A DNA stretch of 64,000 nt from a virus (lineage: Duplodnaviria > Caudoviricetes). Below are positions 9,462 through 33,130 of this stretch, one piece after another. The notes under the pieces were generated by a model, which ran no database searches, was not told the DNA's origin, and saw only the letters and a program-made list of their open reading frames with translations. How positions within the stretch are numbered: position 1 is the stretch's first letter; each line of letters opens with the position of its first letter. The DNA lies in the IMG/VR virus record IMGVR_UViG_3300021430_000575, positions 1 through 64,000 of that record. One strand, given 5' to 3'. The position numbers and the translations under genes were made by a program.

Positions 9462-10250
9462 TTATACAAGAATGGTTTTTATTTTTTGCCGATATTTTCC
9501 AGAACATTGTCTGCTACAAAAAACAACATTTGTCGATAATTTTTTATCTCTATAGAATTCGTTGTTGCAGTTAAAACATGAATAGGTAAAACATGGCTTG
9601 TATGTGTCATATAATTTATACAATTGAGTTTTCAATATCTGGTGTTTATTTGACACATAATCTATGTAAAATTTTATTTTTTCTCCGGCAATCAATATTG
9701 CATTTGATGCGTTTATCTTTATGTAATCGACATCAGTAATTCTTCCTTTGATTTCAAATATTTGATTTTTAATTTCAAAATCTGGATAATAAACGTGTTC
9801 TTTATTATTATATATGTATTTGAATGATTTATGACACCTTGTAATTGGTATATTGTTATCTAAACTATAGATTAGAAAAGCCAATTCATATGTGCTACCA
9901 CAATATATTCCTTTATAGTAACCGGTCTTAGCTCTACCGGATCCTACCCTAACTCCACCTTTTTTAATGCATTCTTTTGAGCAAAAAACTTTACCCCATT
10001 TTGTATATGTTTCAAATTTTTTATCACAGGTAGGACAAGTCTTTATTTGCATTTGTGCCCATTTACGACCTTTACCATTTCGATACAATGCAGGATTAGC
10101 TATTACTCCTTTTGGATTAGCTAACGCATATGCTCTCATTTTGGCTTTAGTTTCTTCAGAACGAGGTCCGCGTGCCCTATTAACACATGTTCTTGAACAA
10201 TAAATTCCTTGTTTATTATGTAAAATGTTGCAATGCTGACAGATTTTCAT
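9462..10250 (-). CDS. PD-(D/E)XK homing-type endonuclease with Zn ribbons
   Basis: GSTYELAF...YYPDFEIKNQIFEIKGR; CxxC..FCSxxC repeats. Confidence 0.75.
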   Translation of the reverse strand: MKICQHCNILHNKQGIYCSRTCVNRARGPRSEETKAKMRAYALANPKGVIANPALYRNGKGRKWAQMQIKTCPTCDKKFETYTKWGKVFCSKECIKKGGVRVGSGRAKTGYYKGIYCGSTYELAFLIYSLDNNIPITRCHKSFKYIYNNKEHVYYPDFEIKNQIFEIKGRITDVDYIKINASNAILIAGEKIKFYIDYVSNKHQILKTQLYKLYDTYKPCFTYSCFNCNNEFYRDKKLSTNVVFCSRQCSGKYRQKIKTILV

Positions 10251-26287: not shown

Positions 26288-26294
26288 AAACTAG

Positions 26295-26745
26295 TATTTG
26301 TGATGGGATTCACACCCATATTTCCGGCCTCCAAATGCAAATGCTAATGGCCAGCGTGTTAAGTTAGAAACGGCCTTCAAAACCCCTCATATATACTCTG
26401 CAATTTTTCCTAATGCTTGACTTGTCTAGGCGCTGCCCCTAGCTCGACGTTTTTATAGCCTTTGCATTTAATATCAAACATTTTTACTAGAATGGTTTGT
26501 ATATACTACTCATTCCTACTACCCGTTAATTCAATTACACTACACAAAGCTCAGTAATTAAAAAAACTTATCCAGGACTTTCACCCGGTGTGAGCATCAC
26601 GCTCTCAGATAGATTTCTCATTCTACCACCGTTGGAGATCGGGTTAATGCATTGAGTTCGTAATTTACAAATTATACTCAACTACCTCTAACATGCATCA
26701 AAGTCTATCTTATCAACACATTAGCCAACTTCGTTCTGTTAAAGC
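26295..26745 (-). ncRNA. structured non-coding spacer with several T-loop-like hairpins
   Basis: 5-bp/7-nt hairpins at 26303-26319, 26426-26442 and 26572-26588; no credible ORF. Confidence 0.4.
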
Positions 26746-28242: not shown

Positions 28243-28947
28243 TTAATTCTTTGTTAGCACACAGCTTACCATAGTATGGTTCCCTAGTCCCTGATATTTC
28301 ATACTATTAAAAGTATAGCCGTGCCGTTTGGCTATAAATCGTACAGCGCCTTCGGTTATCTGCCGATATGGAACAGCCATATTACCACGACGATGCTCAT
28401 ACATTTTTATGCCTAGCCTATTCATCCATTTAATAATACAGGTATTATGTTTGCCGCCGCCGCCACCGCGTGTTGAGACAACTAGTATAATGACCTCTAC
28501 ATTATTTTTGCATGCTTTTTCTAAAAAATCTATATGGTAATCCTGTAAACATTTTACATCATCGAAATCAATCAATGATATCTTGTGTCCCAACGCCCAC
28601 AACATTTCGGCTTGGTTAATTAAATTAGCCTCTACAACTTGACCTTTGAAGCCAAGTTCCTGTTGAGCCTTACGTAATGTCCAATAGGTTTCCCAATCCC
28701 AATCGATCATAAATAGATTTTCTTCTCGAATTCCATTAGCTAAATGCTCATCGATGTGCCGTTTCAGTTGACCGCCGTACCCGGGTATACACAACCCAAC
28801 TCCGTCAAACGTTTTATTCTTAAACGTATTTTGTATAAGAGCAGTCTGACGTAAACAGGTAAGAATCTTACCAGGACTTGTGGTATCAGTATATGCAAAT
28901 TTTGCAGTTTTGCTTGCCATATATATATATCTCCATATTTCACACAT
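28243..28947 (-). CDS. hypothetical protein, possible SAM-dependent methyltransferase fold
   Basis: Gly-rich LCIPGYGG, then FMIDWD and IDFDD acidic strands; weak. Confidence 0.5.
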   Translation of the reverse strand: MCEIWRYIYMASKTAKFAYTDTTSPGKILTCLRQTALIQNTFKNKTFDGVGLCIPGYGGQLKRHIDEHLANGIREENLFMIDWDWETYWTLRKAQQELGFKGQVVEANLINQAEMLWALGHKISLIDFDDVKCLQDYHIDFLEKACKNNVEVIILVVSTRGGGGGKHNTCIIKWMNRLGIKMYEHRRGNMAVPYRQITEGAVRFIAKRHGYTFNSMKYQGLGNHTMVSCVLTKN

Positions 28948-28987
28948 AACGCTAACATGTGTGCATGTTGAAAAGCAAGGATAAAGT

Positions 28988-29074: not shown

Positions 29075-29394
29075 GAAGCAACCGTTATCTCCCATTATCG
29101 GGAACCCTCTAGCGCACTAGCTGGCGGAATATCATTTTTGATATTTAGGCATGATTAAGCCCATTGCTTCGTTGTCTCTGATATTAGTTAGATCAAGTTG
29201 AAATAGTATGAAACACAATATAGAATAACGGTTTATCAGATCGTTCCTTATATTACATTTTCTATACTATTTCAATTATGTAATAAAAAGAGGATTGACC
29301 ATTTGAGCGCATACGCGTCTACCTTTTCAGGCCGTGCCATCGTTAGTGGATGAATAACATGTATTCCACAACGTCCCAATGACTAAACAATCCC
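29075..29394 (-). ncRNA. three adjacent structured RNA modules
   Basis: GAAGCAA/TTGCTTC multiloop (29075-29170), 12-bp stem rod (29198-29275), GGGATTG/CAATCCT multiloop (29291-29394). Confidence 0.5.
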
Positions 29395-29411
29395 AAGTCT
29401 CTATGATATAT

Positions 29412-29484
29412 TGGTACCGGCTATTCGTACTGCCCGAATCTCGGATGGCGTTATGAGCACCACCGGGTCCTTGACCAAACCGGC
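29412..29484 (-). tRNA. tRNA-Met/Ile2(CAT)
   Basis: TGGTG-CTCATAA-CGCCA, reduced D arm, GGCAGTA T-loop, CCA. Confidence 0.75.
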
Positions 29485-29491
29485 ATAATAT

Positions 29492-29567
29492 TGGTTGGCC
29501 CGGCAGGTCCTGCCCCTGCGACCTCAGACTTATCAGGTCTGTGCTCTACTAACTGAGCTACGAGCCA
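29492..29567 (-). tRNA. tRNA-Ile(GAT), second copy
   Basis: CAGAC-CTGATAA-GTCTG, CCA. Confidence 0.9.
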
Positions 29568-29578
29568 TCGAAATAATT

Positions 29579-29654
29579 TGGGGTGCATAGTGGGTTCCGC
29601 CCCCACCTAAACAGAGTCACAGTCTGCCGGCTACACTAGCTGCCTCTACGCACC
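29579..29654 (-). tRNA. tRNA-His(GTG)
   Basis: GCAGA-CTGTGAC-TCTGT, G-1:C73, CCA. Confidence 0.9.
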
Positions 29655-29727
29655 ATAAGCTTTTTGAGACATATGGCTATATAATCTTTTTCAAAGAAAG
29701 ATCTAGTTACTCTATACATTTCAAAAT

Positions 29728-29801
29728 TGGCAGGTCGACCAGGTATTGAACCCGGGCTAAAAGTTTTGGAGACTCTTGTGCTACCATTACACCACCGACC
29801 T
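29728..29801 (-). tRNA. tRNA-Trp(CCA), most 5' tRNA of the array
   Basis: AGAGT-CTCCAAA-ACTTT, G73, CCA. Confidence 0.9.
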
Positions 29802-29848
29802 ATATAAACTGTTTGATTAAACAAACGATTTTTCTGCGTCAAATTATG

Positions 29849-30436
29849 TCATTCGCCAAAATCATGTTTTGTTAAATTATACCACAATTCAGCTGAATAA
29901 AATTTTCTACGTTCAATTATTTTGTAATTGTTTTTTTTATCTTTCCATTCGTTTATTCGATGTTGTTTTGCTACTAATCTAGCTTTCTTTTTTTGTTCAT
30001 TAGGTCGTAGAGTAGTCTTACTCTTCTTTACAATGTTGATTGTTTGTATGGTGTACCTTTTTTCTTTAATTGCTGTACCGGCAAATGTATTCTTCTTATT
30101 TGATGTACTTACCTTAATAAACACGTTTCCAAAAACGTCAGACGTTGTTATGCTGTTAACACTAACATGTTTGAAACATTCAGTTGACCCGCCTGAATAT
30201 AACCAATTAATTGGAACATATTTCTTAGCCTTAAATCTGTTGTGTAACTTTTTCTCGTGATCAAATGCAACTTTTGGGCTTAACTCTTTTGAGAGAGCCA
30301 ATGTTTCAATTTTAAATTGATTTAAATCTTTTGCAAATCTTTCCTCAATAGATGTCGATGTTACACCAATTTTATAAAATTCTTCAAAATTGTGTTCATC
30401 GAGCGAGGTAAATTTTAATAGATATACTTTCCACAT
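29849..30436 (-). CDS. GIY-YIG-like (T5orf172-type) nuclease
   Basis: VYLLK...FYKIGVT....ERF....HEKKLH......GSTECF. Confidence 0.7.
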   Translation of the reverse strand: MWKVYLLKFTSLDEHNFEEFYKIGVTSTSIEERFAKDLNQFKIETLALSKELSPKVAFDHEKKLHNRFKAKKYVPINWLYSGGSTECFKHVSVNSITTSDVFGNVFIKVSTSNKKNTFAGTAIKEKRYTIQTINIVKKSKTTLRPNEQKKKARLVAKQHRINEWKDKKNNYKIIERRKFYSAELWYNLTKHDFGE

Positions 30437-30477
30437 GCTTTAATGTAACACATATCTATTAAATTGCAATCTCTTAA

Positions 30478-30749
30478 TACGGCAAGGCGGTTCTTCACCC
30501 TGCTAACCTTTAATCACCGTTCGGTGGTGCGCCACGTAGCGCACTTTATGCACTGGTATTATATAGAACATACCAGTTATTGACCCCTGTACATTCAGTG
30601 CCAACTCACCCTTTTTCATCTACGCTACAAATGCATCAAACTATATCGGCATAACCATATAGCCACGTAGTATCCCAGCAGGTGCTCAACAGTCCTTATT
30701 TGTTTTAGTTTTTTAACGTAGACCAAGTAGACCGCATCTAAACTACGTT
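30478..30749 (-). ncRNA. unidentified ~270-nt structured RNA directly downstream of the attenuator
   Basis: Hairpins AACGTAG/CTACGTT, GCTATAT/ATATAGT, ACTGGTAT/ATACCAGT, GTGCGCT/GGCGCAC, CACCG/CGGTG; no ORF. Confidence 0.5.
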
Positions 30750-30829
30750 TTAAAAATTCTATCTATTCATTCCTTGCAACTATCTAATCTCCTATCAATA
30801 CATCTTTGTTAACTATTTTGCTGACCAAT

Positions 30830-30864
30830 AAAAAACCCGGTAAGTTTGTTAGTCTTTACCGGGG
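30830..30864 (-). terminator. intrinsic terminator of the leader/attenuator
   Basis: CCCGGTAAAG-loop-CTTACCGGG followed by TTTTTT. Confidence 0.8.
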
Positions 30865-30896
30865 TCTTGTCAGCTTTTTTGTGTTATCACATTACA

Positions 30897-30992
30897 CTAG
30901 CGGACAAGACCTCCCACAGGCTTATAATTCCAGGCCTGGCGATCTTCATTTTTACTAATAAAGAGCATATGTGTAGTCATTTGTGAACTCAT
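30897..30992 (-). CDS. 31-aa leader peptide MSSQMTTHMLFISKNEDRQAWNYKPVGGLVR (not in ORF track)
   Basis: AAGGA RBS 3 nt before ATG; last codons pair with the terminator 5' arm. Confidence 0.7.
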   Translation of the reverse strand: MSSQMTTHMLFISKNEDRQAWNYKPVGGLVR

Positions 30993-31033
30993 TTATCCTT
31001 TGTTAAAATTTGTGTGTTGTTTCCAACGTAGTC

Positions 31034-31063
31034 TATTTATACTGTATTTATTTATAATGTCAA
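31034..31063 (-). promoter_or_regulatory. composite sigma70-like / T4-late-like promoter of the leader
   Basis: TTGACA-16-TATAAA(TA); two TATAAATA motifs. Confidence 0.7.
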
Positions 31064-31101
31064 TTAGTTTTCTTGGTGAATCACGTATTTTTTAATTCTT
31101 T

Positions 31102-31476
31102 TTACCAACAGCGTCCTGCACGACATCCGTACCATGGTCTCGGGCCACCCCAAATAGGTGGAAGATAAACAGGAGGTGCTACATATACAGGCGGTGCTAG
31201 TATAACCGGGGCAGGCGCTACATATACAGGCTGAGGTGCTACATATACAGGCGGTGGTGTAGTATAAATCACTTGCGGCGGAGGATTATTAACAATGATT
31301 GGCCGCGGTGGAGGATTATTAATCACCACCGGAGGACTGTTTGGTTGGACAACCACAGCAGGACTGTCAACCACAATAGGAGGAGGACCATAGTCTACTC
31401 GCACCACTCCTGCTGGTACTGCAGGAGCACATCCATTTATTAAAAATCCAATGGCAAGTACAATATAACTATTCAT
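31102..31476 (-). CDS. proline-rich (PVYVAP repeat) secreted/lipoprotein
   Basis: Signal peptide ending NGC; repeated GCTACATATACAGGC units on the + strand. Confidence 0.65.
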   Translation of the reverse strand: MNSYIVLAIGFLINGCAPAVPAGVVRVDYGPPPIVVDSPAVVVQPNSPPVVINNPPPRPIIVNNPPPQVIYTTPPPVYVAPQPVYVAPAPVILAPPVYVAPPVYLPPIWGGPRPWYGCRAGRCW

Positions 31477-31489
31477 ATTAATATTTATA

Positions 31490-33130
31490 TTAGCTAGAAA
31501 TCGTTGGTTTTACAACCTCATTCATAATTTTATTAATAGCTATTTCACCACCTGGTGTAGTTTCAAACGGCAATGAGTATGTGTCAAGTAGTTCTTTGAC
31601 TTTAATATCAAATCTCACAGCTTCAAGTTCATCTTTTTGATTTCTGCCTACTGGGTCATAGGTAAAATGTCGCTGTAATATGTAATTATAATTTTCATAT
31701 TCGTTAAAAACTTCCAGTACTAGGTTAGTAAAGTTTTTGCTAGTATATTCTGGTTTTACATATATAAGTCCCAGAGGAATTGGGCTGTCTGTGATTACCC
31801 AATCTATATTATGATTCTTTAGCCGTGCAATACGTCTTTGTTGTTTGGCAAATATATAAATTTGATCGTCAAATAAATCAACACGTCTTTCCCAGACAGC
31901 TTCTTTGGCATACTCTGTTACCAGTTCAACGCTGAGTTTTGATTTTTTCATTTCGTAAAAAAGTCCGGCGGCCGTTGTAGAATTATGTGTAACCACATAA
32001 TTATCAGTTACGTATAAATGATCTGTATGGTCAATCATAATACATTGAACTTCAGTTGTTCTAGAATATTCTATACTTTTGATTCTCAATTTTAAATCAG
32101 AATATTGGTAATTTTCTGGTAGTCGATTCATTTTTCTCGTAAGTTTACTTAATTTTCTTGGCTTGGGATATCTAATACAAACATTATAATTAATTTTACC
32201 AGATTCTTTTATACCTTTATACGTATATTTTGGGAATTTTTTTAATATTTTTGCTTGCCCTCCAAGTGACCAAATAATTTCTTGTATATCTTTAGCCAAT
32301 TGTTCGCTAGATGTAGAAATAGAAATGCTACCGCTTTTACAGACATACCCGTCAGAATCTACTAACCCGGCAATCAAATCTTCTTTTTGTGAAGTTGAAC
32401 CACGTTTATATAAATCTGGAATAAATTTGGTATATGAACGTGTACCAAATAATCCCAAATCAAATAATGATTTTTTATAGCAATTTCTAAAAACATTTCT
32501 TTTTCCTTGACCTTTAACAGATTCTGTAGGGTCTATGAACCTAATATTATATCCGTATTTTTGTGGCATTTTATGTATTTTATACTTTGACGATATCTTA
32601 TTGGACATTAAATTTACTATTTCATAGTCATTAGTTGTAAAAGATGTCAATGCTCGTTTACTTGAAAAGCATCCGTCCCCTAATAAAAAACCAAGAACCC
32701 ACGGATCAATTGGTAAAGGTATATCTATGGCATTTAAGTTTCTTACCATAGGTATTCTAAAAATTTGTGTTTTATTAGTCTTTAATTTATCCATCATCCA
32801 TTCTAATGATACGGTTTTATAATCTAATTTTCGCCCTGTATAATTGGATCTCGTCTTATAAGTATTGCCATATTTTCCATATATCTTCCAAAGATGATCT
32901 TTACAACATTCAACCGATCGGCCGTCAATAAATGTAATTTTATACACATCCTTAATCCCTTGTGGATATACTCCTACTACTTTTGAAACCTCTCCGTTTG
33001 GCACAGTAACAGTGGTTCCAATTTTTATATCCTTCATCTGTTTCCACCCATCAGGAGTCAAAACGTTTGCGTCTAATGGCTGAGCCTTCCCTGTTCCTGG
33101 GCCACCGAAGAGATTAATTACTTTCATCAT
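31490..33130 (-). CDS. P-loop nucleotide kinase (AAA_28/NadR-like) containing an intein
   Basis: VINLFGGPGTGK|STTAAGLF...ELVTEYAK...VITDSP after intein removal. Confidence 0.85.
   Translation of the reverse strand: MMKVINLFGGPGTGKAQPLDANVLTPDGWKQMKDIKIGTTVTVPNGEVSKVVGVYPQGIKDVYKITFIDGRSVECCKDHLWKIYGKYGNTYKTRSNYTGRKLDYKTVSLEWMMDKLKTNKTQIFRIPMVRNLNAIDIPLPIDPWVLGFLLGDGCFSSKRALTSFTTNDYEIVNLMSNKISSKYKIHKMPQKYGYNIRFIDPTESVKGQGKRNVFRNCYKKSLFDLGLFGTRSYTKFIPDLYKRGSTSQKEDLIAGLVDSDGYVCKSGSISISTSSEQLAKDIQEIIWSLGGQAKILKKFPKYTYKGIKESGKINYNVCIRYPKPRKLSKLTRKMNRLPENYQYSDLKLRIKSIEYSRTTEVQCIMIDHTDHLYVTDNYVVTHNSTTAAGLFYEMKKSKLSVELVTEYAKEAVWERRVDLFDDQIYIFAKQQRRIARLKNHNIDWVITDSPIPLGLIYVKPEYTSKNFTNLVLEVFNEYENYNYILQRHFTYDPVGRNQKDELEAVRFDIKVKELLDTYSLPFETTPGGEIAINKIMNEVVKPTISS
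31982..33085 (-). mobile_element. class-3-like intein with LAGLIDADG homing endonuclease (368 aa)
   Basis: Starts AQPLD, block-B DHLW, block-F VQCI, ends VTHN|S; LGFLLGDG and IAGLVDSDG motifs. Confidence 0.85.

Follow-up and report, generated by a model that had tools for sequence, protein, structure and literature searches.

The window analysed here, a stretch of 64,000 nucleotides taken as a whole, covers the initial 64 kb of a viral contig that has a length of 83.4 kb and an estimated completeness of 32%. DNA runs containing part of it are mostly from freshwater, and the nearest cultured relatives of the window phage are jumbo phages, with ~36% protein identity in the case of the neighbouring exonuclease. 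On the minus strand, a promoter, a short leader open reading frame (ORF), the hairpins P1 and P2 and an intrinsic terminator (P3) are followed by an array of tRNA genes (Table 1). All 23 tRNA genes of the window are located downstream of this element and on the same strand, and none was found upstream of it within the window.

A blastn search with the leader region against cultured phage records gave no match, and exact-motif scans with the 5′ leader motif and with the P2/P3 junction recovered no relatives because of a 1-nt indel and sequence divergence. Relatives were sought around homologues of the neighbouring exonuclease and of the P-loop ATPase, and also with terminator patterns. The element was found in eight distinct variants, namely, the window and seven other divergent jumbo-phage contigs (L002; L008, equal to L006; L005; L007, equal to L083; L104/L105; L240; L475), with its parts in the same order. 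An architecture scan of the first ~240 loci recovered seven of these variants, the first ones to be found. Among the later terminator-pattern matches listed, L475 was the sole new variant after filtering (two looser patterns were used, and the other added none), and L240 was the sole addition among the matches listed in a metagenome scan. The set conserved in all variants consists of the promoter, an ORF of 25 to 34 codons, P2, a CCCC run, and the terminator. L104 and L105 are one base apart. Among the variants, the flanking ATPase shows ~61 to 70% identity, and pairwise 16 to 40% of the aligned residues of the leader peptides are common. Many close homologues of the ATPase sit on long contigs, and further variants probably exist beyond the eight found.

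Table 1. Positions of the element, of its neighbours, and of selected features in related contigs
Feature	Sequence	Position	Strand	Remarks
−35 hexamer TTGACA	Window	31063-31058	(−)	TTGACA in 7/8 variants, TTGACT in the eighth
−10 element TATAAAT	Window	31041-31035	(−)	16-nt spacer after −35; kept in 7/8 variants
AAAGGA, Shine-Dalgarno-like	Window	31001-30996	(−)	Conserved; 15 nt from conserved ATG, 3 nt from first ATG
Leader ORF	Window	30992-30897	(−)	31 aa (27 aa from 30980); stop TAG 30899-30897
P1, hairpin inside ORF	Window	30939-30914	(−)	Gln/Ala/Trp codons paired with Pro/Val codons
P2 5′ arm, candidate antiterminator	Window	30914-30903	(−)	Last four to five ORF codons
P2 3′ arm	Window	30871-30861	(−)	Ends in shared CCCC 30864-30861
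P3, intrinsic terminator hairpin	Window	30863-30836	(−)	8-bp stem, 12-nt loop
Terminator U tract	Window	30835-30830	(−)	Six U
195-aa ORF, weak T5orf172 match	Window	29849-30436	(−)	Between terminator and first tRNA
tRNA array	Window	29801 down to 69	(−)	23 co-oriented tRNA genes with small ORFs
124-aa proline-rich ORF	Window	31102-31476	(−)	Between ATPase and leader promoter
P-loop ATPase (AAA_28)	Window	31490-33130	(−)	Just upstream
ACGTAG/CTACGT motifs	Window	30534-31026		Around and just downstream of leader, within ~500 nt
Leader	L104	2516-2620		Three consecutive ACA Thr codons
Leader	L105	10195-10299		Three consecutive ACA Thr codons
tRNA-Thr(UGU)	L105	10408-10483		Reads ACA; first gene after terminator, 47 nt away
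tRNA-like 3′ half	L105	~10100-10170		Just upstream of leader promoter
CUA-anticodon tRNA	L002	11647-11722		Near element
CUA-anticodon tRNA	L004	5404-5480		Near element
CUA-anticodon tRNA	L005	8854-8928		Near element
CUA-anticodon tRNA	L007	8644-8717		Near element
CUA-anticodon tRNAs	L083	435-508 and 12366-12441		Near element

The promoter named in the original prediction, TTGACA with TATAAAT, was found on the minus strand and is conserved across the variants. TTGACA-16-TATAAAT is the sole perfect 13/13 match to that consensus within the 64-kb window. Between the promoter and the ORF the sequence is A/C-rich. The AAGGA motif proposed as ribosome-binding site is there, but its spacing to both ATG codons is odd. 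In six variants it lies 14 to 17 nt from the start, compared to 6 to 7 nt for normal genes of the window phage, and efficient initiation is therefore not evident in these six. The leader had been taken to start at the ATG at 30992, which does open a frame of 31 codons, but the start kept in the relatives is the second ATG at 30980, which sits in a conserved context; the nearest relative has CTG in place of the first ATG. The −10 element of L104/L105 and L475 is so near the ATG that the predicted transcript begins at this codon or within 1 to 2 nt of it. Judged from this placement, the messages of L104/L105 and L475 should be leaderless, which would provide a second route to initiation at the same codon.

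The leader frame has been kept open. In the seven variants tested, frame 0 contained no stop in 187 codons, compared to 9 and 14 stops in the other two frames, and the product of the chance probabilities for the leader frame staying open was ~2e-5. The peptides share a Lys-His-Tyr motif near the N terminus, Phe-x-Arg-Trp in the middle, and a Pro 7 to 9 residues from the end. The C-terminal residues change freely along with the covarying P2 arm, indicating that RNA pairing rather than peptide sequence is constrained there. Searches of the leader peptides against Pfam gave no match, and against PHROG all matches had E values of at least 0.077 and were scattered over different families. From the behaviour of the frame, the leader ORF is predicted to be translated.

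The leader transcript also has a pronounced secondary structure. Fold stabilities relative to shuffled sequence corresponded to z values of −4.2 and −4.8, the value of −4.2 being that of the 221-nt RNA of the window, which folds far better than its shuffled counterparts. Most variants also folded into a hairpin at the relative place of P1, in which the region of the Trp codon was frequently paired with that of the Pro codon; in these models P1 might serve as a pause hairpin. The original prediction had the last leader codons form ~13 bp with a downstream segment. Pairing indeed occurs there, but it is interrupted: in the window, P2 consists of 9 contiguous bp, 2 G-C pairs across a bulged A, and 3 inner bp. 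The sequences of the P2 arms differ between variants yet always pair, and nine stem positions show two to three pair types with both sides changed. Between L104 and L105, one A-to-G change turns a U-A pair of P2 into U-G. As MAFFT alignments left P2 out of register, with RNAalifold recovering the terminator alone, this covariation is a tabulation of the pairs in each sequence's own fold rather than a statistical result. The stop codon comes directly after the P2 5′ arm. Counted from the first nucleotide of this arm, the stop begins after 12 to 15 nt in the seven variants scanned, and its distance to the CCCCGG that follows is 26 to 32 nt.

The predicted terminator, a stem with six U on the minus strand, was located at the positions given in Table 1, and a G+C-rich stem followed by five to six U is present in all eight variants. 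P2 and P3 abut without a spacer, and the CCCC in which the P2 3′ arm overlaps the 5′ arm of the terminator is invariant (8/8). When P2 was folded alone, it took three to four of the four C in every variant. With the C run, the stability of the terminator ranged from −11.5 to −19.1 kcal/mol across the variants; without it, from −0.2 to −8.1 kcal/mol, and the G run beside the U tract was then also unpaired. The corresponding values for the window are −11.5 kcal/mol for the complete terminator and −3.0 kcal/mol if P2 holds the C run. In the lowest-energy folds, the C run is paired in P2 for L002, L008, L240, and L104/L105, and in the terminator for L005 and L475. The folds of the window and of L007 contain both hairpins, with an almost complete terminator (7 bp in the window). 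The two structures had been described as mutually exclusive; across the clade this holds in a limited sense, as predicted competition for CCCC at the base of the terminator stem, and in the fold of the window both hairpins are present side by side. In this model the switch of the window and of L007 would rest on one to four bp plus kinetics. When the footprint of a terminating ribosome was blocked in silico, the full terminator formed in all eight sequences folded in this way.

P1 and the P2 5′ arm have no sequence in common, and P2 persists when the untranslated RNA is folded. Of the covarying stems expected in homologous leaders, the alternative pairing P2 was recovered. An anti-antiterminator (1:2 of the trp scheme) was not found. 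An untranslated leader would therefore read through, in contrast to the trp paradigm. A cmscan search of window positions 29600 to 31300 against Rfam with E values up to 1 returned only tRNA-Trp and no leader, T-box, or riboswitch match.

These properties bear on two explanations in which no switch is involved. A small non-coding RNA of ~150 to 200 nt with functional hairpins and an incidental frame would have folds much more stable than shuffled sequence, a covarying P2, and its own promoter and terminator, all of which were observed. We nevertheless regard it as very unlikely, as the frame is open in the seven variants tested despite heavy divergence with the other frames closed, the ATG is conserved, two variants show the leaderless promoter placement, and the stop codon is in a fixed register with P2. 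An independent small gene, in which a strong promoter and a compound terminator would serve a trans-acting peptide of 25 to 34 residues and the adjacency of the tRNA genes would reflect conserved gene order, is also unlikely, albeit less so. The complete promoter-to-terminator unit, the conserved frame, and the recurring residues, which suggest a conserved peptide, fit such a gene. It is at odds with C-terminal residues that vary freely with the P2 arm, with Trp and Pro codons that pair in P1, with a pairwise identity of only 16 to 40%, and with the lack of a Pfam or PHROG match, and it leaves the zero spacing between P2 and the terminator and the invariant shared C run unexplained.

The attenuator architecture is well supported: its anatomy is conserved, P2 covaries, the frame is open, and tRNA genes follow. 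With regard to function, the evidence leans modestly towards a ribosome-dependent transcription attenuator that gates the entry of RNA polymerase into the phage tRNA array. According to this model, the strong sigma-70-type promoter would start a short transcript with an ORF of 25 to 34 codons. The last codons would pair, as the 5′ arm of P2, with a 3′ arm ending in the four C that are also needed by the base of the P3 stem. A ribosome promptly at the stop codon would hold the P2 5′ arm, the C run could then pair with the G run beside the U tract, and the full terminator formed in this way would end transcription. If the ribosome were late, stalled upstream, or absent, P2 would form first; the terminator would lose its bottom three to four G-C pairs and be displaced from the U tract, and polymerase would read into the tRNA genes. 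The idea of a leader-peptide attenuator, which was at the core of the original prediction, thus gains strong support from the conserved anatomy in eight variants and from the covariation of P2, but the window, from which it was derived, shows the weakest competition and an oddly spaced ribosome-binding site. The switch itself and the signal that it senses are what we infer from this architecture.

A second aspect of the prediction was the amino acid diversity of the leader. The counts given for the window were exact: the 31-mer contains 19 of the 20 amino acids, with Cys missing, and 15 consecutive residues that all differ. When random 31-mers were drawn from the phage's own composition, at least 19 kinds occurred with P ~0.0026 and a run of at least 15 with P ~0.0012. 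Counted from the conserved start, the variants had the following numbers of kinds per length, with P values from the composition null: window, 19/27 (4e-4); L002, 18/25 (2e-3); L008, 19/25 (1e-4); L005, 17/26 (0.025); L240, 17/25 (0.016); L007, 16/25 (0.078); and L104, 19/34 (0.007). L475 had 15/26, with ~13.7 kinds expected at this length. None of the seven relatives was picked for diversity, and together they have 121 kinds compared to 96.5 expected. Full independence of the relatives would make this z = 6.4; they fall short of it, and as the variants are homologous, the combined statistics overstate independence.

The excess of diversity survived nucleotide shuffling within blocks of 9 to 15 nt. 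Under a null that fixed the residues common to the nearest homologue, the window, L002, L008, and L104 were significant (P = 5e-4 to 0.03) and L005, L240, and L007 were not. In three variants, the first 16 codons, at which a stalled ribosome would leave P2 free, specify 15 kinds. No variant carries all 20 amino acids, Cys being the one usually missing, and the conserved Trp and Pro are explicable by RNA pairing in P1. Runs of one codon are absent from the leaders, save for the three ACA codons in L104/L105. Diversity is near normal in L007 and L475 and modest in L005 and L240. The homologous leaders therefore show the anticipated diversity as a group but not in every case; it is clearly elevated and recurrent without being a strict rule.

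When 8,711 short ORFs of the window and ~80 loci were ranked blind, four leader variants came out among the most diverse. The top of this ranking was another short ORF of L008, with 17 kinds in 19 residues; because it lies out of frame inside a kinase-like gene, it was rejected as a chance case. Such diverse short ORFs do arise by chance, as this case illustrates, and in principle the leader could be one of them, in an intergenic region with no role other than ending the upstream operon. We consider this extremely improbable: all parts are conserved in eight divergent contigs, which are homologues and not assembly duplicates of one sequence, P2 covaries, and matches to the architecture that occur by chance, with 9 to 19 kinds of amino acids, lack the other conserved parts.

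If the element is the attenuator outlined above, the unusually varied codons upstream of P2 would make ribosome arrival depend on many aminoacyl-tRNAs at once, and the element would therefore raise tRNA transcription when translation capacity falls. A tentative extension, which we consider possible without giving it preference, is that the leader was selected as a sensor of all tRNAs, with about one codon for nearly every amino acid placed upstream of the antiterminator. Depletion or cleavage of host tRNAs, as by host shut-off or anticodon-nuclease defences, would then stall the ribosome, and the stalled ribosome would block the terminator and turn on the replacement tRNA array. If true, this would be a self-correcting counter-defence circuit in jumbo phages. 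Alternatively, the same attenuator might sense general translation-transcription coupling only, i.e., ribosome availability, elongation rate, or release at the stop codon, with the diversity a by-product or a weak preference. The architecture agrees with both versions equally, and this one is also consistent with a diversity that is not universal (L007, 16/25; L475, 15/26), with the non-significant conditional tests for three variants, and with the textbook knowledge that single codons are weak sensors in classical attenuators. We hold it to be rather unlikely, as the diversity of the clade is far above chance and is concentrated in the codons upstream of P2.

Co-oriented tRNA genes follow the element in all eight variants, and we infer that it controls the tRNA array. 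The gap between the terminator and the first tRNA gene is 47 nt in L105, where 16 tRNAs follow, 266 nt in L008, 286 nt in L007, about 390 nt in L475, 419 nt in L005, 685 nt in L240, 835 nt in L002, and 1,028 nt in the window. The gap of L105 is too short to hold a promoter. Elsewhere in the set, promoter-like sites ahead of the first tRNA gene and after the terminator were found in L007, L240, L005, and the window but not in L002 and L008, nor in L105; where they occur, control by the element may be partial. In the 452.8-kb record with L008, which is rated complete, the element was found once, ahead of at least 40 co-oriented tRNAs over ~40 kb. A second terminator-pattern match in this genome was discarded as an ordinary gene-end terminator; its ~3-kb locus contained no tRNA genes. 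A position at the head of the tRNA array, as originally proposed, is the rule across the variants, but in L105 tRNAs are also present upstream of the element.

The 195-aa ORF located in the long gap of the window has a T5orf172 match below the Pfam cut-off. It probably represents a mobile insertion of the endonuclease type, and its presence stretches the distance between terminator and first tRNA gene to the value given above. Just upstream of the leader promoter of L105, a stretch with a T arm and a CCA-bearing acceptor end resembles a tRNA 3′ half; ARAGORN made no call for this stretch. A match of the leader codons to the phage's own tRNAs was considered and dropped, since the leader and genome-wide fractions were alike.

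Assembled metatranscriptome contigs from two studies match positions 30474 to 30736 of the minus strand, just downstream of the terminator, with at least 99% identity, and contigs from one study match 29352 to 29612, 28739 to 28951, 28336 to 28658, and 26289 to 26445 with the same minimal identity. The leader itself lies outside the matched stretches. Being assembled contigs and not raw reads, they allow neither ends nor levels to be read and are uninformative on the leader. Positions 30474 to 30736 fold moderately well (z = −1.9), and the matched stretches in the array may be stable structured RNAs. For 26 unmatched letters at 30474, no match was found anywhere in the window.

Comparison with known systems places the element close to the amino acid attenuators. 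Like the trp, his, leu, thr, ilv, and pheA attenuators, it has a short leader ORF (translated in the known systems), an intrinsic terminator before the genes that are or would be regulated, a hairpin that competes, or in the element would compete, with the terminator, and a stop codon whose position lets a terminating ribosome cover that hairpin. In contrast to them, it has near-maximal variety instead of a run of codons for a single amino acid, it lacks the 1:2/2:3 exchange, and its overlap with the terminator is confined to the 4-nt C run. The regulated genes would be phage tRNAs, whereas those of the amino acid attenuators encode biosynthetic enzymes. The Thr codons of L104/L105 together with tRNA-Thr(UGU) as the first gene after the terminator (Table 1) are reminiscent of a classical single-amino-acid attenuator, and this leader is among the less diverse ones.

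With pyrBI and pyrE of enteric bacteria the element would share an outcome that is set by the closeness of ribosome and polymerase through a leader ORF overlapping the terminator region and not by one codon run. In pyrBI, a closely following ribosome prevents formation of the terminator. The logic of the element would be reversed, as a timely ribosome should permit the terminator. In T-box riboswitches, as would be the case for the element, the choice between antiterminator and terminator follows tRNA status. T-boxes, however, bind uncharged tRNA directly and without a leader ORF, and no T-box model matched the element.

The mef/mel attenuator (PMC4335068) and ermC-type leaders are ribosome-stalling leader ORFs upstream of antibiotic-resistance genes. 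In these resistance leaders, as proposed for the element, a short ORF reports impaired translation, switches the RNA structure, and turns on genes that relieve the impairment. The resistance leaders respond to drug-bound ribosomes at particular peptide motifs, whereas the element has no such motif and its target genes would be tRNAs. The tnaC leaders (PMC8429421) resemble the element in their peptides of ~24 residues, in a conserved Trp and Pro, and in the importance, proposed for the element, of events at the stop codon, but they are Rho-dependent and have a fixed Trp-Pro spacing of 12 residues. In the element, Trp and Pro are 3 to 6 residues apart, which is explained by codon pairing in P1, and the terminator is intrinsic.

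A full-text literature search found no paper on leader-peptide attenuation of phage tRNA genes. Judged by its sequence, the element appears to have the defining parts of trp/his-type attenuators except for the codon run and the anti-antiterminator and would fall outside the described families. Large phages carry dozens of tRNA genes, whose presumed role is to keep translation going when host tRNAs are lost by decay or by cleavage through defence nucleases. To our knowledge, next to nothing has been described on the control of phage tRNA gene expression. The conserved leader ORF and the putative switch at the entry of the array would provide a first candidate for a regulatory logic in which tRNAs would be made when translation falters. 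If true, this would be a new attenuation design with many different codons in place of a run of one. The element is compact (~230 nt). Should it function in the way outlined here, it could be used to sense translational stress in general.

Several further features were observed near the element. The P-loop ATPase just upstream of it carries an insertion of ~367 residues inside the Walker A motif, with LAGLIDADG homing-endonuclease domains. This insertion apparently begins with Ala and ends with His-Asn before Ser, in the manner of an intein. The relative in L002 has an uninterrupted protein of 179 aa. The proline-rich ORF between the ATPase and the leader promoter, which is absent at this place in L002, encodes a lipoprotein-like signal ending in Cys and PXPV repeats.

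The leader stop of L007 is TAG. If this stop were suppressed, ribosomes would run on across P2 and the terminator as far as a TGA just past the U tract. The tRNAs with a CUA anticodon listed in Table 1 would be amber suppressors, and their presence near the element hints at TAG recoding in those phages. Finally, four copies of the hexamer ACGTAG and one of its complement CTACGT are present in the interval around the leader given in Table 1, and the whole 64-kb window contains 13 copies of ACGTAG and 12 of CTACGT.
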